Assembly: GCA_964633895.1 (NCBI GenBank)
Contig: CAZWIK010000007.1
Span: 104 to 64,103, forward strand
From: an uncultured Enterobacteriaceae bacterium
GTDB taxonomy: Bacteria > Verrucomicrobiota > Verrucomicrobiia > Opitutales > UBA953
Direction: 5' to 3'
Length of the DNA: 64,000 nucleotides
Shown here one piece after another: positions 47,976-64,000 of this stretch. A program made the position numbers and the translations under genes. The notes beneath the pieces were generated by a model that was given only the letters and a program-made list of their open reading frames with translations, was not told where the DNA came from and made no database searches. Every line of letters begins with the position of its first letter. Within the stretch, counting starts at the first letter, position 1.

Positions 47976-50510
47976 ATGAGCCGTTTTTACAATCGAAATT
48001 TAACACCAGAAAACATTATGCCGAATCTGAACAAACTCACGCCGGAACAGGCGAAAGAATTATTCGACTGGTATTGGACCTACGGTTGCAAGCGGAAGGG
48101 CGCTTATTTGCTTTCCCGCGGCGGCTGGTTCGATAAGCTCCACAGAACGCTTTCCCGCTATTCGGACATTCGGTTTTCCGAAACGCATTTCAAGCGTCCT
48201 GCGGTCGCGATATGGGGACCGTCGCAGTCGGGAAAATCGACGTTGCTGGCGACTTTTATCGACCACGAGGACGGCGCGCTGAATTGGGCGGGAGACAATT
48301 TCAAGTTCGTCGCCAGCGAGGGCAAAAGGCTGAATCCGAATAACCGCGGGAGTGACGCGTCCGGATGCGTTACCCGCTACGTGATGCGCAATTCCGTTCT
48401 GCATGAGGACGCTCCTGCCGAGATTCAGTTCGCGCGGGAACGCGACGTTTTCATGTCGCTTGCCTTCGGATATCTTTCCGAGATGGAGGGAATTGATAAA
48501 GACGGACGCCAGAAGTATTTCGACGCGGAAAGTCTGCGGAAGCTACTTGAAGACGCGAAGGGCGGCAGGTCGAATTTTTCGCCGAAGAAAGAATTTTTCC
48601 CGATGCTGGCCGCGGTCGCCGACGTGCTGGAAGCGCTGATTAAGGCGAAACAGGAGCGTTATTCCAATCTCGGAGGAAATCAGTGGGCGGTCTTGCGCAA
48701 CGATATATTCAACTGCGATGCGCTTCTTGAGAGCGAAGATTCCGTGATGAACTTCGCGGCGGAAGTGTTTTGGGACGGCTGGGAAAGCCTCACGGACATC
48801 TGCTGGGATCTTTTGGGAAAACTGAAAGAAATCACGCGCAGGTTTTCGGGAAAGAAGGTTTTCTGTTCGTTGGATCTCGCTTCAATCCTTTTGGATATCG
48901 CGGCGGCGGAAAATGCCGAAAGCAAAGAAAAAATCGCCGACTTCGGCATTGACGAAACCGCTGCAGACGCTGTCGTCATCGGAAGGGGACACGGCGCGTT
49001 CTCAGACGAAAACGATTTTGCCTTGACGCAGGCGCTCGTCGCCGTGCTGGTGATTCCTCTGCGGGACCGCGTCATCGAGAAAGCGAATCCCGCGCTCTTC
49101 GAATTGCTGAAGATTGCGGACATCGTCGATTTTCCGGGCATCGCCAACGAAGAGCGAGGCGTTCGGGGAACGCAGCTGAACAATGAAATTCTGAAAGCGA
49201 ACCGACTTTTGGGGCTGACCAAGGTGCTCAAGCGCGGGAAGACGGCATCCATCGTCATCGGCTATTCCCGCAATCTCGATATTGATGTTTTCGCGTTGCT
49301 GATGCGCATGAATAAATATCCGCCGAAGCCGGATCAGCTGAATGCGGGCATCGCTTCGTGGTTCGCCGAAATGCTACAGAAGGATTTTAGCGAGAGAACC
49401 GCGGCGGAACTTCCGATAAACATCGTCCAGACGTTCGCTTCGGAGCTGGTGAATTCGGTCCGTCAGACGGCGATTAACAAAAAAGGTTTGCGCGAAATAT
49501 TTGAAAAGAACGACAGACTCGGAGCGCTCTGCAAGCCTGGCTGCGTAAAGTATTTCGCCGTCAATTATCCTCAATTTAAACCGGAATGCGATATTTCAGC
49601 GGAAGGTGAGGAACTGGGGAGAATCATCGAAAAAATCGAAAACGACGGCACTTTTTCGGAGCATTACGCGGGAACGTCCGAGTCTTTGCGCCAGATGTGC
49701 GGGCTCAGCGGTCCCGGCGGGAACGACGGCGGTCGCACGTATCTTTTCGAATATCTCCTCAAACAGGTGAAGAGTTCCACACGGCAGAATCTGCTCGACC
49801 GGAAAAAGCGGGCTCTCGGTGACGATTTTTCGTCCGTAATTGAAGAAGCCATACCTGCAGACGGAGACGAAAATGCTCGACGGAGAGAAGATATTCAGCG
49901 GGTCTACGATGGCATCGTGAAGCGCGCGGCATGGGACCATGAAATCATTTCTCGGGAGATTCTCCGCTTTTCGAATATTCGTCCGGAAGACCTGGCACCC
50001 GTTCCCGTCGGCGTTTCCGAAGATGTTTTCCACAAATACAGCGAAGATGTCCTTGACAAGGTGAAGTTCTCGCTTACGCAGTCCCGACTCGGGACCGCCG
50101 TAGGCGTCGAGGAAGAATTCATCGGTAGCAGAATCGCCGCTTATTTCATGGACGGAATCTCTTCACGGGAACTGAAAAAATGGATTTGCAAAAATCTGTC
50201 GGTGTTGGCGCAGAGCGACACCGATGACTGGAAAGCCGCCGCAAGACGCCCTCTCGCGCTTCACTTAGCGGCGCAGCTTTTGAGACGCGGAAAAGACGAA
50301 CGGCATCGTGACGATGCTCAGGATTACTTCAGCCGCGTCTCAGAAAAAGCCGACGAGGACATAGATTATCGGTACTCTCCGGACTATGTTTCCGTAATTG
50401 CTCCGTTCCTGAAAACGCTGAAAAACATAGCGCAGGAAAGCACAAATTCTCGCGGGTGTCAGGAAGGCGACAACGAGCTTCGCGCCATCATCAATTCATT
50501 AAACGATTAA
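47976..50510 (+). CDS. srfC: SrfC-like (virulence factor family) large P-loop GTPase/dynamin-like protein
   Basis: WGPSQSGKST (G1), NPNNRGSDASGCVTRY (G2), VDFPG (G3) and KRGK, resembling SrfC motifs. Confidence 0.8.
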   Translation: MSRFYNRNLTPENIMPNLNKLTPEQAKELFDWYWTYGCKRKGAYLLSRGGWFDKLHRTLSRYSDIRFSETHFKRPAVAIWGPSQSGKSTLLATFIDHEDGALNWAGDNFKFVASEGKRLNPNNRGSDASGCVTRYVMRNSVLHEDAPAEIQFARERDVFMSLAFGYLSEMEGIDKDGRQKYFDAESLRKLLEDAKGGRSNFSPKKEFFPMLAAVADVLEALIKAKQERYSNLGGNQWAVLRNDIFNCDALLESEDSVMNFAAEVFWDGWESLTDICWDLLGKLKEITRRFSGKKVFCSLDLASILLDIAAAENAESKEKIADFGIDETAADAVVIGRGHGAFSDENDFALTQALVAVLVIPLRDRVIEKANPALFELLKIADIVDFPGIANEERGVRGTQLNNEILKANRLLGLTKVLKRGKTASIVIGYSRNLDIDVFALLMRMNKYPPKPDQLNAGIASWFAEMLQKDFSERTAAELPINIVQTFASELVNSVRQTAINKKGLREIFEKNDRLGALCKPGCVKYFAVNYPQFKPECDISAEGEELGRIIEKIENDGTFSEHYAGTSESLRQMCGLSGPGGNDGGRTYLFEYLLKQVKSSTRQNLLDRKKRALGDDFSSVIEEAIPADGDENARRREDIQRVYDGIVKRAAWDHEIISREILRFSNIRPEDLAPVPVGVSEDVFHKYSEDVLDKVKFSLTQSRLGTAVGVEEEFIGSRIAAYFMDGISSRELKKWICKNLSVLAQSDTDDWKAAARRPLALHLAAQLLRRGKDERHRDDAQDYFSRVSEKADEDIDYRYSPDYVSVIAPFLKTLKNIAQESTNSRGCQEGDNELRAIINSLND

Positions 50511-54361: not shown

Positions 54362-55759
54362 ATGGGCGAATACGTTTTAAAATTCGTTAAGACGGGAAAA
54401 CAACCCGACAGCATCCCCGGCATCGAAATCAAATATAGTCCGGAAAATCTGTTTTACATCGACCAGATCAAGGGCAGGGCGTTTTGGGACGATGCGGACA
54501 CGCGGCGGATAATGTCCGAGCGTTTCAAGCGTTATATGGCGAGCATGGAGCCGCTGGACGGGAACCGCGTTCGCGCGCGTCTGTTCTGCGGAAAGACGGA
54601 AGTGCTCTCATGCAGTTTTCCGTATTCGACGCACGGGAAAAAACTCTCGAAACAGGAACTCGACGGATACGCTGCTCGCTTGGAAAAACTCGGGGAACTC
54701 GGACGTTCTCCCGATGCGAGCGAGCGGATGAGCGATATTTCAAACCGTTTTCCCGTCGCGGATCCGAAGGAGGATCCCGAACTCTTTCGCGTTTACAAAT
54801 ACGACGGAGAATGGCGGCTTGCGGTAATCTGGGGGCTGACGGGAACGACGGGCGAAAAAATCGCGTCGGTGGGAACGCACCGCCTGCCGGTGAGCGGAGA
54901 TCGCCGTTCTTGGGCGAAGCTGCTGATTCTGCTACTGTCACTGCTACTGTCGCTGCTGTTGGCGGCGTTGATCGGACTGCTGTGCTGGCATTATTTCGGA
55001 AAGGAAAAAGTCGGCGGCGACGACGCCGTAATCGCCGTCGAAGACGAAAGATCCGGTCTGCGTCTGGAACGTGGCGAAGCGCGGCTTCTGCCGGACGGAA
55101 AATATGAAATGCCCGCGCGCTTCTGCGTCGGAGAAAAAGCGCGGCGTCCGCGGGCGTTCTGCGACGGAGAGGAGATTACAATCGCACCTGTCGGACCGAC
55201 GGAAAAGTTTCTGACGCTTTCCGCGGGAGAACATGTTCTGGAGCTGCGGGAAGACGCGTTTCTGCCGCCGCCGAAGGAATTGTCCCTGCGCTTCACGCGT
55301 CCGTCCCCGTCCGCCTCTCACGACGGGGACATGAGGGGAAGTCAGACTGCGTCTGCGCCTTCAGCCCGAACGGACATATCCTCTGCGGGAACGCGACCTG
55401 TCGAATCTGAAAACGGCGGTTCGGTCGGCGACGATTCCGCTTTCGGGGGCGAAGATATTCGAGCCGTCGCTGAGGGTAAGCCGCCTCAAAAACTCTCATC
55501 TTCCCAAGCGTATAAGCTCGACTACAATTATACGTCAGGCGGCGATTCCGAATTCGGAACGGTCGAGATTCGGGTCAAACAAAAGCCGTTCGGAACGAAA
55601 CTGCGTTCCGTGGTTTATAACGGAGTGCCTGCCGAGCGCGTCGGCGACGATTGCTTCTGTATCCGAGGCATTTCCGCAGATGCCGGGATAACGGAGGCTC
55701 GGTGTGAATTCAGCGACGGGTCCAGCATCGTGTGCGATTTCAAGGAAGTCTTAAAATGA
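54362..55759 (+). CDS. SrfA-like membrane protein
   Basis: FPVADP..PELFRVYKYDGEWRLAVIWGL resembles the SrfA N-domain end; then a Leu-rich TM and an extracytoplasmic low-complexity/beta region; located next to srfB/srfC. Confidence 0.6.
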   Translation: MGEYVLKFVKTGKQPDSIPGIEIKYSPENLFYIDQIKGRAFWDDADTRRIMSERFKRYMASMEPLDGNRVRARLFCGKTEVLSCSFPYSTHGKKLSKQELDGYAARLEKLGELGRSPDASERMSDISNRFPVADPKEDPELFRVYKYDGEWRLAVIWGLTGTTGEKIASVGTHRLPVSGDRRSWAKLLILLLSLLLSLLLAALIGLLCWHYFGKEKVGGDDAVIAVEDERSGLRLERGEARLLPDGKYEMPARFCVGEKARRPRAFCDGEEITIAPVGPTEKFLTLSAGEHVLELREDAFLPPPKELSLRFTRPSPSASHDGDMRGSQTASAPSARTDISSAGTRPVESENGGSVGDDSAFGGEDIRAVAEGKPPQKLSSSQAYKLDYNYTSGGDSEFGTVEIRVKQKPFGTKLRSVVYNGVPAERVGDDCFCIRGISADAGITEARCEFSDGSSIVCDFKEVLK

Positions 55760-56138: not shown

Positions 56139-57878
56139 ATGGCAAGAATCTGCATTCTTGGAATCAAAAGCGCGGGAAAGACGGTCTTCATCTCCGTTTT
56201 GGCGAATCGTTATCGCGAAATCAGAGACGGAAAACCGTATATGGAATTCAAAAACGTTCGGACGAACCGATACGTTTCCGAAATTTGGGATAAGCTGACG
56301 CGGGAACGCATGTGGCCGGATTCCACGCCTCCGGGCGAACGGCTGGTTTTGCAATGGGGACTACATGCGCCGGATGGGCAGGAGCATTTTATGAAAGTGC
56401 TCGACGCTCCCGGGCAGGACGTCGCGGCTATTTTTTCCGAAGCGGAGAGCCTTTCACCTTCGCAGAAAATTCTCGCCGAAAACATAAAGGAATCCGACTG
56501 TATCGTTTTTCTCATCAATCTACGGGAAATCATTCAGGCGGAATCGGCGAAAGCGGCGAAAGATCGCTCCGATTACGAGAACCCGATCGTCATCGCGATA
56601 ACAAAACTGCTGGCGCGCCGCGTGCGTGTGGCGATTCTCCTGTCTCAGCATGACCGTCTGAAAAACTATCTCCGCGAAGAGAAAAACTTTTTCTGCGACA
56701 GCGAAGAAGAAGGCAAAGAGCGGACGCTTGCGAGCGAGACGGCGGGAACACCACCGGCGATAGACGTGCTGAAACGCTTCCTGCCCTCCGCCTACGGCGC
56801 GTTGAAAGATCGCCTCGCGCGGAAAGATTCCGGCGTCTATGTCGACTTCGTTTCCGCCGTCGCAGACACGGAACTGGTCGCGGACGAGACCAGTGGGAAA
56901 ATGCTGAGCCGTCCCTGCGAGAATTTCGGATCTTACGGGCTGGACGAAGCCGTGGCGTGGATGGTGAATTCGCTTTCTTCGGCGCATCGGGATCGCGTCG
57001 ATGAACAGTTCGCCCGCGTGAAAGAGTCGCGCGTTCGGCGGGCGGTTATTTTCTTTTTGATTGCGGCGGTTTGCGCGAGAGCGGCGATGATTGCTCCACA
57101 GATGCTTGAAGATCACATGAAAAAGAGTGCGAAGACAGAATTCGATCTTATTCTTGAAGAGGATGAAGCGGTATTGAAGCGCGAGATGTCTGAAAATAAA
57201 AAGAAGGATGATCAGATTTCCGCTGAGCGGGAAAAGCTGAAAGGCTATTTAGACAAGGAATATACCTGGAGGATCGTAGACGGGAGAGAATACTCGTGGC
57301 GGATTTACGGCGATAGTGATACGCGTTTTCTTCAGAAAGATGATGTGTATTTAAAAAACCTGTCGGAAGAGACCTGGGTGAACGCAAAAATGGAAATCAC
57401 CCCTAACTCTTCCAGCGAGGAACCGTTTACGCTGAATTTTGGAAATGTCGCTCCAGGGGAAGAGGTCATGAGGCCTTACGTGTGCAATTTCCACGAAATG
57501 GGCGGTAAAGTATCTCTTAAAATCGAGGTGCGCGATTACAAGAAAGAGAAAGAAAACAAGGAGCGTTTTTCCGCGGAAAATAAAAAGCTGGATGAAAGAA
57601 AACTCGCGCTTGCGCAGGACCTCAAGCAGGCACACGCGCGGAAAGAAGATAGCGACTCCAAAGCCGAACGGCAAGAAGCGCAGGCGATCGAAGACGCCGC
57701 GAACAGGGCGAAATATGTCAAAATCGCCGGCATCGTCGCCGCCGCGTTATTCCTTTTCTGCGCGCTGGTCGATCTCGCGACTTTGCCGTTCGAGCAGGCG
57801 CGCATTCGTCGCCGCGAGAAAAAAAATCAGGACGCATCAGACTTTTCATCGATACAACAGAGAGAGGAACAGCTATGA
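56139..57878 (+). CDS. TRAFAC-class GTPase (double-GTPase-system-like) with TM-extracytoplasmic domain-TM tail
   Basis: ILGIKSAGKT (G1), DSTPP (G2), LDAPGQ (G3) and atypical G4 SQHD; two hydrophobic helices flank a coiled-coil/beta insert. Confidence 0.75.
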   Translation: MARICILGIKSAGKTVFISVLANRYREIRDGKPYMEFKNVRTNRYVSEIWDKLTRERMWPDSTPPGERLVLQWGLHAPDGQEHFMKVLDAPGQDVAAIFSEAESLSPSQKILAENIKESDCIVFLINLREIIQAESAKAAKDRSDYENPIVIAITKLLARRVRVAILLSQHDRLKNYLREEKNFFCDSEEEGKERTLASETAGTPPAIDVLKRFLPSAYGALKDRLARKDSGVYVDFVSAVADTELVADETSGKMLSRPCENFGSYGLDEAVAWMVNSLSSAHRDRVDEQFARVKESRVRRAVIFFLIAAVCARAAMIAPQMLEDHMKKSAKTEFDLILEEDEAVLKREMSENKKKDDQISAEREKLKGYLDKEYTWRIVDGREYSWRIYGDSDTRFLQKDDVYLKNLSEETWVNAKMEITPNSSSEEPFTLNFGNVAPGEEVMRPYVCNFHEMGGKVSLKIEVRDYKKEKENKERFSAENKKLDERKLALAQDLKQAHARKEDSDSKAERQEAQAIEDAANRAKYVKIAGIVAAALFLFCALVDLATLPFEQARIRRREKKNQDASDFSSIQQREEQL

Positions 57879-59267
57879 TTCATTGGTTTGCTTACGATCA
57901 CTTCAATCCTGCAAATCCTTCCGAATATTGGCGTAGTGTTCCCGAAGGAACGCCGCTTCCAGATTATGCGAAATTCATTCCGACCGAAGAAATTCCAAAG
58001 GCATTCCCGTCGTCAATCGAATGTAATTCATGGCGCGGCGGCGACTTCATCGCGGGAATGAAAATTTCCGCCGAACGCGCCTGCATTTTCAGAATTTTTG
58101 ATGGCGGGAACGATTGTAAAGGGCGACGCAATCGCTGGGTGATGCTCATGGCGGAGGGCGACCGTGAGGATTTCGCGGGAACGGATCTTTTGTCCGCTGT
58201 GGACAGCGAGACGTTTAACGCGTTCGCCGCGAGCGCGAAAAAAACCGACGGTTGCACCGCCCGCGCACCAAGAGCCATGGTGGAACTCCTCCGCGGCGAA
58301 GCTGTCCGAGCCTTGTTTCGAGCGCATTGACGGTGCGGACGCGGATAGAAAAATCCGGGAGATGTCCAAGGCGTTTTCCTCCACGCCGAACTCGGAAGGC
58401 TTGATTTTGGTCCGACGCTCGGGAACGAGCCTGCGCGCGTCCGTTTCTGTCCGCATCAATCGAGCGCACGAAACGTCGTCTGTTCCGCGAAATGCCGCGT
58501 CCGGCGCAACAAGCCGATTTTACGAAAAAAGGACGGAATCTCCGCCTCCGCGCGACGTTCCCGCGTCCGCCGTGTGCGGGCGACGGAAATTGCCGATATT
58601 CTTGTCGTTCGCCGTCGGCTTCTTGTGCGCAGGGATTCTTTGGTATATCTCGTATGGCGCGCTTAACGGAAAGTACAACGACCTTGAACGTAAGCTCGAA
58701 GGAAAAGAATCACTTGTGCGAGAGTTGGAAAATGACAAAACGCGCTTGAAAGAAAAAATAACATCCTTGAAAGGTGAGAACGACCGCCTGACGAAACGTA
58801 ATGAGGAGTTGAATAACAGGCTGAACGGTCAAGATGAGACTTCCTTTCTAGGGCAGATGTGCGCGCAAATCACAAAACACCTGCACGCCTTTGAAGAAAG
58901 TTTTAATAGACAGATGGAGCAGTTGGATCAGATGAAGAAAGCAGCTCTCAAGGAACTTGAAGAAAGCGTGAAGGAAATTCAGAGCAGGATAGACAGAGTT
59001 AAAGACAGTTCGAAGGTGCAGCCGCTGCCGGATTCGTCCAAATTCGGCAAATTTGAAAAAGGCGAAGGTAACTACGCATTCAAATTCATAATTGAATCCT
59101 GGAAAAAAGAAAGGTCGTCTATCGTCTGGCATGGCAAAAACGACGTGGTTTTCATCATTTGGATTCCGGATTCCTACCCTACTGACGAGGCGATAGAAGT
59201 ATGTATGCCCGAAAAATTTGAGGTTTATCCGACCTGGTGTTTCTACTGCAACAAGTGCTCAGATTGA
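57875..59267 (+). pseudogene. GAP1-N-like domain + TM + coiled coil, split by a frameshift at an A7 run
   Basis: GGNDCKGRRNRW motif. Removing one A at 58238-58244 fuses ORFs 57875 and 58164 into a 463-aa ORF. Confidence 0.55.
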
Positions 59268-59271
59268 CGCG

Positions 59272-60639
59272 ATGGCGGACATCTGCATCCTTGGGCTCAG
59301 TGGCGCAGGGAAAACGGTTTTTATTTCCGTTCTGACGAGCCGTTTCCGCGAAATTCGTGACGGCGAACCGTATTTCGCTTTTAAAAATGCGGGAACGAAT
59401 CTCTACGTTGCGACCGTCTGGGATAAACTGACGCGTGATCGCGAGTGGCCGGATTCCACACCGCCGGGAACGCGGCGGGTTTTGGAGTGGATACTGCACA
59501 CACCGGACGGGAACGAACACGCGCTACACGTTCTCGACGCGCCGGGACAAGACGTGGCGGCGGTTTTTTCTGCGGACGATGCGACCGAACTCAGTCCGAA
59601 CCAGCGAGAACTCGCGTCCCGAATCGAATCTGCGGGCTGCGTCGTTTGGCTCATCAATCTGCTGGAAATCAGGCTGGCGAATTCCGCGGCGGAGCGCGCA
59701 AATTATGAATCCGCCGTCGTCGTGGGAATTCTTCGCCTGTTGGCGCGCCGAGTGCGCGTCGCCGTTCTGATCGCGCAGCATGATCGCCTGAAAGCGAACT
59801 TGTATTCCGGCATCGGGTTCGTCAGCGACGACGAAAGCGCGGAAAAAACGCTGAAAACGGAAACGGCGGGCGTTTCTCCGCTTGACGTGATTCGCGAATC
59901 GCTCCCGTCGGCATACGCCGTGCTGAAATCCCGGATTGAAAAACGCGATCCGCTCGTTTATCTGGATTTCGTTTCCGCTGTCGCGGACACGGAAACGGTG
60001 CGCGATGCCGACGGAACCCTGCGGTCGCGTCCGGCGGAGAATTTTTCGTCTTACGGACTTGCCGAGGCGTTGGCGTGGATTTCCTCGAGCGTAGAGGGAA
60101 TCGAACGCGAGAACAAGGCGGCGGTCCGGATCGCGACAAAAACGCACGTCCGCGGGAACGCTTATCACATCGGATTCGCGAAAGCGACGAGGAGGCTTTA
60201 TGCGCGAATGTTCAATTTTTCCGGACGCGCCACGCGTTCGGAGTTTTGGAAAGGATTGTCGGTTTCGATTACCGTGTTTTGTCTGTTGAGGTTTGTTAGT
60301 GCGGAAACGTCGCTGGAAGTTGCTTTATCACTTTTATTACTATTACCATTTGTTGTCGTTATTCCGCTCTTCGCTCTAACGGTTCGGCGTGCGCATGATA
60401 TGGGTGTTTCTCTTTTTCGTTTTTTACGTATAGGTGGAGGTATTGTTTTGCTTATTGTTTTGCTTGGAATGATTTTTGACGACATCTTCAAAAGCGAGGT
60501 CATATTTAGCTCTGTCTCCATCGTTCTCGTTATTTGTGTTTTCGGGATTTTCCTCATCGCCTTGTGCTTGTGTGATTCCGATGTCGGCAGGAATAAATAC
60601 GGCGACTCCGAGAAATATCCTGATGATGCGCGTGCTTGA
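59272..60639 (+). CDS. Second paralogous GTPase fused to a DUF805-like membrane domain
   Basis: ILGLSGAGKT, DSTPP, LDAPGQ and AQHD; C-terminal FNFSGRATRSEFW...VRRAHDMG...GRNKYG is the DUF805 pattern. Confidence 0.8.
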   Translation: MADICILGLSGAGKTVFISVLTSRFREIRDGEPYFAFKNAGTNLYVATVWDKLTRDREWPDSTPPGTRRVLEWILHTPDGNEHALHVLDAPGQDVAAVFSADDATELSPNQRELASRIESAGCVVWLINLLEIRLANSAAERANYESAVVVGILRLLARRVRVAVLIAQHDRLKANLYSGIGFVSDDESAEKTLKTETAGVSPLDVIRESLPSAYAVLKSRIEKRDPLVYLDFVSAVADTETVRDADGTLRSRPAENFSSYGLAEALAWISSSVEGIERENKAAVRIATKTHVRGNAYHIGFAKATRRLYARMFNFSGRATRSEFWKGLSVSITVFCLLRFVSAETSLEVALSLLLLLPFVVVIPLFALTVRRAHDMGVSLFRFLRIGGGIVLLIVLLGMIFDDIFKSEVIFSSVSIVLVICVFGIFLIALCLCDSDVGRNKYGDSEKYPDDARA

Positions 60640-60728: not shown

Positions 60729-63700
60729 ATGATGAAGAGAAAAATCCTTTTGCTGATTGCCGTTTCCGCGCTGGGCGTTCCCGTTCCGGCGCTTTTCTCC
60801 GCCGAGGATTTCGCGCCGGCGGTGCGGGCGGAAGCGCGAGTTGTCGAGTTCGACGTTCCCGTGCTGAGCGTCTGCGGGAGCGGAGAAAATGCGGAAGGGC
60901 GGTTTTCCCGTCTGCCGTTCAAGTTCCGGCGGACGACGGCGGAGGCTCCTTTCCGCGTGTCGATCAGTGACGACGTCTCGGGCGGGAGCGGCGAGGAGAT
61001 TCGTTCGAGCCTTTGGAGTGCGGCGACGGTCGCGGCACTGATGCGCGGAGATTTGATGAGCGGCGTTCGGCTTAGTGTCGATTTTTCCGGAAACGTGGAC
61101 GAACCGAGCGCGGGTGGCGTGCTTTGTCTCGCGATTTTGAGCGCGCTCGACGGACGCGAATTTCCGAAGGACTTCGCGATGACAGGAACGATTCTGCCGG
61201 ACGGGAGCCTCGGGCTTGTCGGCGGCATCGATAAAAAAATGGAGGCGGCAGCGAAAGCCGGAATCAGGCGCGTGTGCATTCCCGCGCTGGGGCGGGTGGA
61301 AAACGACGGGAACACGAACCTCTTTGGGGATCTGGTCAAATGGGCGGAGTAGCTCGGCATCGAGCTGATTCTCGCGGAAACGGCGGAAGAAGCTTATGCA
61401 GCGGCGCATCGTCTGCCGCTTCCGGAGAGGAAGACGGTTTCGGAGCGGGCGGCGTTGAGTCTGCCGCGGGAACAGGAAGAAGCCTAGTTTTCCGGATTTT
61501 TTGATAATTTCAACGCCTGCGGCGCAATCGCGCGGCGGCACGAAACGGAAATCGAACAGCAGGATCCGTTTTTGTCGCGCTATGCGGAAGAGTGCTATCG
61601 TCGTTCTTTGAGGCTGTTGAGAGCGGGATATTTTCAGCGGGCATGGGAAAATTCATTCGAAAGCCTGCTGTTTTGGCGCGCGTGGGATGAATCCTCCGCG
61701 TTGAAAGAAGCGTTTTGGCGCGCGCGACCGAATGCGATGAAATCTGTCTTCGAAGCTGCGCTGGCGGATTCCGACGCCGCCGCGACGGACGCCGACAGAA
61801 ACCTGCTCGTCGAGTTCCGGAATTATCTGGGGGGGGGGAGAAATTAAAAGACGCTCCGACCGCGCCGCGTTCGTCTGAGCGCGGGGACGGCGTTCCCGCG
61901 GAATCTTGGGGCGTCGGCTATTATCGCGACGCGCCGTGGGAAACGGAAATTTCCGCGCAGTTCGAGCCGGTGCTTTCGTCGGCGGATTCGGACGCGTGGA
62001 GAACCTTTTTCAGACGGGAATTGAAGACGACGTGTCGAAAGTCGGCACGAAGCGTGAAATCGTAATGCAGATGAACCTGTCGGGGTATCAGGAAATTCTT
62101 GCCCGCGTCGGGCTTGCCCGAAAAAACGAAGGCTCTTATTTCCTGAAGATCGCTGAGGTTACGCCGCAGATTCGAGGAAACGCGAATTTGGCGAAGGCGG
62201 CGAATTTTTATTACTCCGCGCGCAACGCCGTTTCCGAAAATTTGCGCAACGGATTTCGTGACGAGGTTTCCGAGGACGACGATCGGTATCTGTGGCGTTT
62301 CATCTACGGTTGCAACGGGAGCGACGAGCTCTGCGACGCCGTGCGTCTGGGAAAAAAGGAATCGGATCCGAGCTACAACGCGCTGGCGCGCATCATTGCC
62401 GACTGCCGGCTGTTGGCGCAGGGGGCGGCTCTTCAGATCAAATACGGTCCCGATGTCGGAGCCGTGGAATCGGAGTCGCTCGGCGTCAATTCTTACGAGA
62501 ACACCTATTTTCTGGACGCGCTCATCCGCACGGCGCGGATTCAGGCGCTGAACAGCATCGGCGAATGTCGGGAACGCAACATTCCGTGTCCGGCGGCGCT
62601 TTCCGCGTTCGTCGAAGCGGACACTTCCCGCGGCGATTTCGCGCGGGATCAGCTTTTCGACATGCTGGCGAATTATTGGACTGCGGGCAACATCGCTCAG
62701 GCGCTGACGCTTTGTTTCGATCCGCAACCGACGACGGAGGAGGCCGCGGCGCGCGGGAACGCCGCCGCGCAGTTCCTGCTCGGACGTCGCGCTACACTGC
62801 GCAACGATATTGATGCCGCACGCGAATTTTTGTCGAAATCCGCGGCTCAGGGCGACGCCCGCGCGCAGTATTATCTGAGCCATCTTCTCGATGACGGAAA
62901 TGTCGTGCGGGATTTGCTGGAAAAATCCGCGGCGCAGAATTTCATTCCCGCGCAGGAGGAGCTGGCCTCTGTGTATTGGTTCGGAGACGAGGATGCCGGC
63001 GTCGAGCAAGATAGGAAAAAGGCGTTCAAACTTTTTGAGAAAGCGGCGGAGGCAGGGTCTGTCACGGCGCAGGAGGTGCTCGCGAATATTTATATTAACG
63101 AAGACGAAATCGTCGAAGTCGACGCGGCGCGCGGTCATGCGTGGCGACGGATCGCGGCGGAGCGCGGGGACGCGTTTGCGCAGTTTTGGCTGGCGTACGA
63201 TTTTTCGCGAGGCACGCCGTGGAGCGGAAAAAATGCGGAAAGCGCAGCGCGCTGGTTTTCCCGCGCGGCGGAACAGGGGAATGCCTCAGCTCAGAGTCGG
63301 CGCGGCGAGTGTTATTCTTACGGGAACGGCGTCGAACGGGATTTGGAGAAAGCGTTCGGCTGGTATTTGAGGTCGGCGAAACAGGGAGACGAGGTCGGGC
63401 AGTTCAACGTCGGGATCTGCTTTCTTTTCGGACACGGCGTGAGGCGGAATTACGCGCAGGCGGTGCGATGGTTGAGAGAAGCGGCGGAAGCCGGAAACAA
63501 GGTCGCGAAGATGTTTCTTTCCACGTTGCAGATGCCTCGCGTGCATGTTCCCGATACCGATTTTTTCATCGGCGCGCACGAGGTCCGACAACTCGAATAC
63601 TGGATGTTGATGGATGTCGGAAATTCTTCCGCGAATAAAGGCGATGATCTGCCCGTGGAAAACGTTTCCTGGGACGACGCGATGGAATTTTGCCGCCGGC

Positions 63701-64000
63701 TCACCGCCTAGGAACGCGCGGCGGGAACGATTCCGGACAATTACGAGTATTCGCTCCCGACGAAGATTCAGTGGATCACCGCGTTTCGTGCGGGAACGAA
63801 TACGCCTTACAATACGGGCGCGACGGAAGAGGATCTCGCCCGCGCCGGCTGGTATGCGGGAAATTCCGGAAACCGTTCGCACGCGGTCGGACAAAAAGAG
63901 CCGAACGCATGGGGCATTTACGACATGCACGGGAACGTCTGGGAATGGTGCGCGGACGCCGCCGAAAACAACGATTCCATGCGCGTCGTGGAAGGCGGGA
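60729..64000 (+). pseudogene. Large interrupted exported protein: Lon-like S16 protease domain + helical region + Sel1 repeats + FGE-sulfatase domain (partial)
   Basis: DEPSAGG...GGIDKKMEAA (Ser-Lys dyad), Sel1 repeats and NAWGIYDMHGNVWEWC. In-frame TAGs at 61350, 61485 and 63709; frame changes near G10 (61829-61838) and about 62005. Confidence 0.7.

Follow-up and report, generated by a model that had tools for sequence, protein, structure and literature searches.

Twin membrane GTPases with differing tails and a common partner gene in a Verrucomicrobiota genome, an apparent sister clade of the DO-GTPases

The DO-GTPases, known from predicted GTPase-centric conflict (immune) systems of bacteria, are a family of TRAFAC GTPases with a conserved Walker B glutamate, which often occur as two paralogues, are always paired with a downstream GAP1 protein and are frequently membrane-linked, with Hsp70/GrpE, FGS, TPR, kinase and tubulin as recurring themes (Kaur, Burroughs, Iyer and Aravind, 2020; PMC7159879). 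Their GAP1-N2 type is common in planctomycetes and verrucomicrobia (PMC7159879), and a later paper mentions a predicted role of DO-GTPases in membrane-related stress (10.1101/2020.09.24.301986). Here, we describe a comparable arrangement in a stretch of 64,000 nucleotides (hereafter, the window) of contig CAZWIK010000007.1 from the Verrucomicrobiota draft genome GCA_964633895.1. Two paralogous GTPase genes, termed copy 1 and copy 2, flank a partner gene whose N-terminal domain we call midN. We read the twins as inner-membrane TRAFAC GTPases which, together with midN, would form a hetero-pair switch connecting their different tails to neighboring modules within a conflict system, and we assign this reading a probability of roughly 0.6.

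Copy 1 is located at 56139-57878 on the + strand and encodes a 579 aa protein. Copy 2, on the same strand, ends at 60639 and encodes 455 aa from the ATG at 59272 (MADICILG...), most likely the true start rather than the TTG at 59218. A preliminary description of this DNA had called the two N-termini similar even at the DNA level, which is borne out. BLASTP of both proteins showed 166/287 identical residues (58%, E-value = 3e-111), a codon-aware comparison of both copies gave 62% nucleotide identity, and the string quoted in that description (tgggataa.ctgacgcg.ga.cgc..gtggccggattccac.cc.ccggg) was found at alignment columns 148-197, where it encodes W-D-K-L-T-R-x-R-x-W-P-D-S-T-P-P-G. Because the third-codon positions of conserved residues are just 53% identical, the DNA likeness reflects protein constraint, and recent copying or gene conversion was ruled out by the near-saturated synonymous sites. 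The duplication is old at the DNA level, its likeness being kept by selection on the protein.

Both copies carry the TRAFAC features, i.e., a Walker A motif (G-x4-G-K-[ST]), a switch-I threonine and a Walker B D-x-x-G. Specifically, G1 reads GIKSAGKT in copy 1 and GLSGAGKT in copy 2 (residues 8-15 in each), switch I is WPDSTPPG in both and G3 is DAPGQD (residues 89-94 in each; all motif coordinates are given in Table 1). At G4, the xQHD that had been reported in place of N/TKxD is SQHD in copy 1 (residues 169-172) and AQHD in copy 2 (residues 168-171), so that the canonical [NT]-K-x-D lacks its lysine and retains the base-reading aspartate. The closing motif F-x-S-Y-G-L-x-E-A-x-A-W, already recognized in the preliminary description, occurs in both proteins (FGSYGLDEAVAW in copy 1 and FSSYGLAEALAW in copy 2).

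The AlphaFold2 model of the copy 1 head (predicted local distance difference test score, pLDDT, 88.7; predicted template modeling score, pTM, 0.88) gave 127 Foldseek matches against the PDB at E ≤ 1e-3, and all 50 listed were GTPases. The best match was YcjX (E-value = 2e-7), followed by G-alpha, Arf/Arl, SR-beta, Ras and EF-type proteins. YcjX (PDB 6NZ4-6NZ6; DUF463) resembles the head as a bacterial GTPase with helical insertions, but the resemblance amounts to a template modeling score (TM-score) of 0.46-0.55 with an identity of 10-12%. Neither copy matches DUF463 (PF04317) in Pfam and only 2/108 relatives do, at about 1.5e-4. The scan of the cluster genes detected no YcjF-like (DUF697) domain. 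When the head sequence was searched against the PDB, only insignificant Der/EngA fragments were returned. For both GTPases and the partner, NCBIfam and PADLOC gave nothing but coiled-coil noise, which in PADLOC fell on the C-terminal part of the partner. Judging from the model, the head has a GTPase fold without a close solved relative.

The twins belong to a large family. A HMMER scan over 1.84 billion cluster representatives recovered 440 representative clusters at E ≤ 1e-3 and 215 at E ≤ 1e-10, with the P-loop within the first 10-30 residues in nearly all members. Motifs were counted in an alignment of 148 members. In the Walker A motif G-x-x-G-x-G-K-T, both glycines and the lysine are invariant and the threonine is found in 145/148, the P-loop consensus being G-[T/L/M]-E-G-[S/A]-G-K-T. 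The switch-I threonine of W-P-x-S-T-P-P-G is equally frequent (145/148), the D-x-A-G-Q-D motif has Q in 120, H in 18 and E in 10, and an L-V-N-L motif and a C-terminal P...F-x-S-x-G-L..W complete the set. G4 is [T/S]-[Q/A/K]-x-D (T 110, S 34; Q 121, A 13, K 11), with the aspartate in 140 members. By this alignment, the odd [T/S]-Q-x-D is a fixed trait of the family and not a local oddity.

Comparison with the DO-GTPase1/2 hidden Markov models (HMMs), which had been proposed as a check, was borderline: with DO-GTPase1 (PF19975, cut-off of 27 bits) copy 2 scored above (28.6-29.1 bits) and copy 1 below (25.8-26.0 bits), matching only profile positions 2-128 of 271, the N-terminal half, and with DO-GTPase2 (PF19993) both remained below the cut-off (17.3 and 15.8 bits). 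At the family level, the Pfam DO-GTPase1 model matches 85/108 members (best E-value = 3.5e-12), and hhalign of the family against the GTPases preceding bona fide GAP1-N2 genes gave an 86% probability (E-value = 5e-6) over 205 columns. Alignment to a bona fide DO-GTPase1 is collinear through G1, G3, G4 and G5. The comparison set consisted of eight GTPases preceding true GAP1-N2 genes in this phylum, which have an internal GAPxSGKS P-loop, DNAGE and x-K-[HYF]-D, and one GAP1-N1 locus, which encodes a DO-GTPase1 of 156.7 bits with DEKGE and SAWD and a zinc-ribbon paralogue with DVSGE and TKID. Placing the GTPases beside GAP1-N2 genes in the same family was rejected, as the family HMM matches none of them at E ≤ 0.01.

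The family shares with the DO-GTPases a TRAFAC head that is often doubled, a partner gene directly downstream, membrane association, the Hsp70, FGE/FGS, TPR-like and kinase themes, and an occurrence in planctomycetes and verrucomicrobia, in addition to the weak but collinear HMM and profile matches and a bona fide DO-GTPase1 that likewise has no G4 lysine (SAWD). Unlike them, the twins have D-A-P-G-Q, and the family mostly Q, where the fetched DO examples have a glutamate (DNAGE, DEKGE, DVSGE). Their P-loop stands at the very N-terminus without zinc ribbons, and the variable domains of the family are C-terminal tails of the GTPase itself. Additionally, the partner is a compact 125-residue domain followed by a transmembrane segment (TM) and a coiled coil, in which GAP1-N, -M and -C were undetected, and the window system has no GASH or FNIII component. 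Because the Walker B glutamate is replaced by glutamine and GAP1 was undetected, we place the family outside the DO-GTPases proper, as what its sequences indicate to be a distant sister clade. Across the entire genome, the GAP1-N HMMs PF20013 and PF20012 matched only contig C44 and not the window. A bona fide GAP1-N2 protein of 507 aa, which has a TM and scores 69.6 bits, is encoded there (L024:1408-2931) directly after an aspartate kinase, no DO-GTPase being visible on this 3.3-kb contig.

The partner gene starts within copy 1, overlapping its stop by 4 bases. Relatives carry it as a single gene of 340-355 aa, in which the N-terminal domain (about 125 residues) is followed by a middle region, then a TM and finally a coiled coil. 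The window version is divided between two frames by a shift somewhere between about 58235 and 58270, an interval that contains an A7 run (58238-58244); residues 1-123 are 45-48% identical to the relatives' gene and the second frame continues the same alignment. Neighborhoods were examined at 17 genome loci and 4 contigs, out of about 440 family representatives, and the midN HMM placed the domain immediately after the GTPase in 14 loci from three PVC phyla (Lentisphaerota, Verrucomicrobiota and Planctomycetota), where GTPase identity falls to 25-30%. The pair of GTPase and midN genes is the core of the system.

The midN domain has five invariant residues (D8, W19, R73, G78 and R84) and the motif F-R-x-F-x-G-G-x-D-x-x-G-R-x-x-R-x-V. 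Its AlphaFold2 model (pLDDT 89.8) is a five-stranded sheet with flanking helices, and its top Foldseek matches are weak ones to PAS-like and longin domains (E-value 0.02-0.05, TM-score 0.33-0.40). As for a GAP1-N identity, Pfam gave no match even at E ≤ 5, and hhalign against one sequence gave a 31% probability. A short shared G-x-D-x-x-G-R-x-N-like motif, together with the same position after the GTPase, may offer a weak lead toward GAP1-N. By position, midN is the analogue of GAP1.

Beyond the heads, the twins diverge into the two different membrane tails that the preliminary description had outlined. In copy 1, two hydrophobic segments (residues 302-320 and 529-547) enclose about 200 residues of coiled-coil and beta-rich sequence, confirming the proposed order of TM, extracytoplasmic coiled-coil/beta region and TM. 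Since basic flanks adjoin the membrane segments there (RVKESRVRR before the first and RIRRREKK after the second), both ends of the protein are placed in the cytoplasm, the basic end after the second TM running to the stop at 57878. This tail had no match in the Pfam scan and its type is present in 12/148 family representatives by tail clustering. Copy 2 does continue into DUF805 (PF05656, residues 313-444, E-value = 4.1e-13, 50.2 bits against a cut-off of 25.7), and the DUF805-type tail cluster is present in 9/148. This domain is a clear member of the DUF805 group of YhaH/YhaI-type inner-membrane proteins, from which it differs by its fusion to a GTPase head.

The idea of a GTPase with exchangeable membrane modules stands on a broad basis. 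At least one TM is predicted after the head in 119/148 representatives (about 80%), and 139 tails of at least 50 aa fall into 91 BLAST clusters. Pfam identified DUF805, FGE-sulfatase, Sel1, WD40, ankyrin, DnaJ zinc finger and DUF4328 among the tails, as well as Hsp70 and Ser/Thr kinase as N-terminal fusions. The fusions of other members to Hsp70, FGE-sulfatase and Sel1 mirror genes that neighbor the twins in the window. Invariant tails among homologues would have spoken against exchange, and the tails clearly vary, even at the second-GTPase position of three related genomes: DUF805 in the window, a TM tail cut by the contig end in the L001/L002 contig, and TM plus FGE-sulfatase at the orthologous position of Ca. 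Spyradenecus (Lentisphaerota; L004/L007).

The heads of the window copies group as sisters (97/89) in a maximum-likelihood tree, inside a nine-member clade (100/100) together with copy-1 orthologues and the second GTPase of L002, and the two Thermoguttaceae copies of L013 are each other's sisters (100/100). The tree suggests that doubling took place more than once, in at least two lineages, or that the copies co-evolve. GTPase-midN-GTPase triads or tandem pairs were found in L001, L004, L013, L015, L019, G041 and G074. The recurrence of tandem paralogues fits a need for two heads, without proving it, and makes the heterodimer of the preliminary description plausible. Two or three tandem GTPases with differing tails lie at L013:6576-11710, L015:455-3565 and L019:7832-12133, in Thermoguttaceae and other planctomycete metagenome-assembled genomes from ruminant guts, and midN sits between the GTPase copies in L013 and L019. 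At L004:3884-5664 (Ca. Spyradenecus, JAZRSB010000069.1) the second GTPase is split into two open reading frames (ORFs) and has lost G3 (FWDTDQ...); it may be an inactivated paralogue or a pseudogene.

Synteny varies among lineages. In the window, the twins belong to a cluster headed by SrfC- and SrfB-like genes, and the order SrfC-SrfB-...-GTPase-midN-GTPase is kept in the L001 contig. In two Verrucomicrobiota relatives, the GTPase-midN pair comes directly after two dynamin-family genes (L009:6994-9975 and L010:5735-8629; products of about 610-640 aa and about 350 aa) that match the PADLOC models LeoBC and LeoA, while in L013 a caspase gene lies upstream of the GTPases. The resemblance to the Eleos (LeoA-LeoBC) system is that of membrane GTPase systems, with GTPase-midN following such genes in L009 and L010; however, no dynamin-family gene was detected in the window, where SrfC/SrfB occupy that position, and the twins themselves match neither the LeoA nor the LeoBC PADLOC model. 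The pair in L009 is followed by genes for a zinc-ribbon/PqiA-like protein and for a Sel1 protein of 813 aa. The GTPase family was found in 5/151 sampled genomes of the phylum, scattered over families, and was absent from the sampled genomes of the window's own order. SrfB was found in 4/151, and only the window's genome has both. Such a mosaic and patchy pattern is that of mobile accessory (conflict) systems, as circumstantial evidence.

On these grounds, the most likely role of the twins would be that of an accessory, horizontally moving and envelope-associated conflict system, directed against phages or stress. The GTPase and partner module would be its conserved and often doubled core. The N-terminal heads would lie in the cytoplasm and bind GTP, with G1, G2 and G3 intact and the G4 aspartate kept, and would act as a GTP-dependent switch, probably as a hetero-pair. 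The glutamine following D-x-x-G is at the position of the catalytic Gln61 of Ras, and this Ras-like residue (D-x-x-G-Q) would do the chemistry. The membrane-tethered midN, with its two invariant arginines, could bind the heads and tune hydrolysis or exchange, like a GTPase-activating protein (GAP) or as a coupling factor. The differing tails would bring different envelope signals or act on the membrane; two heads could integrate two envelope inputs, or couple the exposed module of copy 1 as a sensor to the DUF805 domain as a membrane effector. The output would pass to the neighboring modules, i.e., the SrfC-like NTPase, the Hsp70-fold SrfB and the Lon/Sel1/FGE proteins, and in relatives the switch may gate LeoA/LeoBC-like dynamins or a caspase. 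The interpretation given in the preliminary description is in part supported as a whole.

Several findings weigh against this conflict-system switch. We found no experimental paper on DO-GTPases or on this family, so that function is read from context, and none of the PADLOC-DB 2.0 models matches copy 1, copy 2 or midN. Foldseek of midN against the PDB yielded no significant neighbor (best E-value = 0.018), and its comparison with GAP1-N by hhalign, a candidate that was rejected, gave 4% for the 18-sequence GAP1-N2 profile and 1.4% for GAP1-N1. The flanks (HrpB, GcpE, DAHP synthase) are housekeeping genes and show no obvious defense island, and two genes of the cluster are disrupted in this genome, namely the frameshifted partner and the broken Lon/Sel1/FGE gene. 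Finally, the SrfB link is a narrow one, as none of the other 150 sampled genomes contains both SrfB and the GTPase family, by which a general SrfB linkage was ruled out.

A bolder form of the proposal is that GTPase and midN make up a previously unrecognized, self-contained membrane switch, in which the GTPase has a Ras-like glutamine, the small membrane-tethered midN is the arginine-supplying regulator and the tail an exchangeable envelope sensor, and which has time and again been plugged into force-generating or killing modules of different kinds (SrfC/SrfB, LeoA/LeoBC-type dynamins, a caspase). We regard it as tentative; if true, the enigmatic SrfB/SrfC "virulence factor" proteins would for the first time be given a mechanistic context, being effectors of a bacterial conflict system.

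Membrane maintenance is the alternative that survives best, and we consider it rather unlikely. The GTPases would remodel or repair the inner membrane under stress, like YcjX/YcjF or bacterial dynamins, their tails serving as anchors or envelope sensors while SrfB/SrfC or dynamins do the mechanical work. The best structural match being YcjX, a conserved stress-linked GTPase, would fit this, as would the dynamin-family genes upstream in relatives, the housekeeping neighbors in the window and the prediction that DO-GTPases act in membrane-related stress (10.1101/2020.09.24.301986). However, the YcjX match is remote (TM-score 0.49, 11% identity), and the patchy distribution (5/151 genomes, none in the same order among those sampled), the extreme tail turnover (91 clusters) and the linkage to a caspase, FGE-type binding domains and LeoA/BC-like genes are more typical of conflict systems than of core physiology.

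The condition of the locus bears on a further explanation, namely that in this genome, a draft of 1.7 Mb in 76 contigs, the system survives only as a decaying, non-functional remnant. Apart from the frameshift of the partner gene, the Lon_C/Sel1/FGE region aligns across three frames to a single 1018-aa protein of Ca. Spyradenecus (L004) and contains three internal stops, all TAG and in frame (61350, 61485 and 63709), and two frame changes, with a G10 run at 61829-61838; in the L004 relative, the second GTPase is broken and has lost G3. On the other hand, the SrfB and SrfC genes and both GTPase genes are intact, the latter with every family motif, and homopolymer runs (A7 and G10) stand at or close to two of the frame changes in what is a draft assembly. 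Assembly errors and phase variation are common at homopolymer runs. The partner frameshift may stem from misassembly, from phase variation at the homopolymer or from true pseudogenization, and the system may be inactive here or may only appear so through homopolymer errors of the assembly. Since the odd G4 is family-wide and its guanine-reading aspartate is kept, decay is unlikely.

On the same grounds, it is improbable that the heads switched to ATP or another NTP after loss of the G4 lysine, as the preliminary description had suggested in proposing an altered nucleotide specificity. This idea draws on S/A-Q-H-D in both copies and on a glutamine at the lysine position in 121/148 relatives. 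However, in canonical GTPases it is the aspartate of NKxD that reads the guanine base, and it is kept in both copies and in 140/148 relatives; many accepted GTPases have no G4 lysine, a bona fide DO-GTPase1 (SAWD) among them, and the best structural matches listed are all guanine-nucleotide binders. The proposed change of nucleotide is not supported.

Least probable of all is that the GTPases are accessories of an SrfABC-type host-interaction or toxin operon, helping to export or activate SrfB/SrfC against eukaryotic cells: SrfC- and SrfB-like genes do head the same cluster in the window and in L001, and a Xenorhabdus srfABC operon was reported as cytotoxic (PMC6950479), but neither SrfB nor SrfC accompanies the GTPase-midN module beyond L001 and the window's lineage, the cluster showed no genes of a secretion system, and SrfB has an Hsp70 fold in which Pfam detected no toxin domain. 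Likeness to the srfABC operon (PF07520, PF10139) lies in the SrfC- and SrfB-like genes of the window's operon-like cluster. A canonical srfABC operon is not known to contain a small GTPase pair.

DO-GTPase systems are so far a matter of computational prediction only, and the clade described here stands at the edge of what the Pfam model reaches. The present work delimits a large family, recognizable by the GTEGSGKT-type N-terminal P-loop, W-P-x-S-T-P-P-G, D-x-A-G-Q-D and [T/S]-Q-x-D, identifies its constant partner and shows that its variable element is the membrane tail of the GTPase itself. This offers a simple, testable two-protein unit for studying how bacterial membrane GTPase switches sense and signal. 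Additionally, its links, to SrfB/SrfC in one lineage and in others to dynamin-like defense genes, suggest working partners for those little-understood proteins. Within the study of bacterial conflict systems, this is an incremental result and hardly a surprise to specialists.

Table 1. Features of the GTPase gene cluster in the window, in window coordinates.
Feature	Coordinates	Strand	Evidence
SrfC-like P-loop NTPase, 844 aa, first cluster gene	47976..50510	+	Pfam Virul_Fac PF10139, E-value = 6.5e-17
SrfB-like Hsp70/actin-fold protein, 905 aa	50527..53244	+	Pfam SrfB PF07520, E-value = 4.5e-63
TM and coiled-coil protein, 356 aa	53275..54345	+	ORF; no Pfam match above cut-off
465-aa protein, one central TM	54362..55759	+	ORF; no match in Pfam scan
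Small Sel1-repeat protein, 90 aa	55846..56118	+	Pfam Sel1, E-value = 4.4e-12
Copy 1, GTPase domain, residues 1-285	56139..56993	+	Motifs, AlphaFold2 model, Foldseek
Copy 1, G1	56160..56183	+	
Copy 1, switch I	56313..56336	+	
Copy 1, G3	56403..56420	+	
Copy 1, G4	56643..56654	+	
Copy 1, closing motif	56925..56960	+	
Copy 1, tail: TM1, extracytoplasmic coiled-coil/beta-rich/coiled-coil region, TM2	57042..57779	+	Hydropathy scan
Partner gene: midN domain, middle region, TM, coiled coil	57875..59267	+	Alignment to relatives, midN HMM
Copy 2, GTPase domain, residues 1-280	59272..60111	+	BLASTP against copy 1, motifs
Copy 2, G1	59293..59316	+	
Copy 2, G3	59536..59553	+	
Copy 2, G4	59773..59784	+	
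Copy 2, closing motif	60043..60078	+	
Copy 2, DUF805 membrane domain, residues 313-444, three predicted TM	60208..60603	+	Pfam PF05656, hydropathy
Lon_C protease/Sel1/FGE-sulfatase gene, disrupted	60729..63957	+	Pfam Lon_C, Sel1, FGE-sulfatase

The features of Table 1 form a tight co-directional cluster on the + strand, which spans from 47976 to the window end and is preceded by genes for the HrpB helicase, GcpE, DAHP synthase, YicC and Rho. Neither the partner gene between the twins nor the SrfC/SrfB operon around them was mentioned in the preliminary description. The translation of the SrfC-like gene contains a P-loop (GPSQSGKS) and a D-F-P-G Walker B motif, by which this protein is probably an NTPase itself. 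The PDB sequence search gave no match for it, and PADLOC gave a weak one to mad8 (E-value = 3.6e-5). Its orthologue occupies the same position in L001, where the SrfB-like orthologue is 51% identical. Of the two membrane proteins that follow SrfB, the 356-aa protein has its C-terminal half kept in L001 and the 465-aa protein its N-terminal part.

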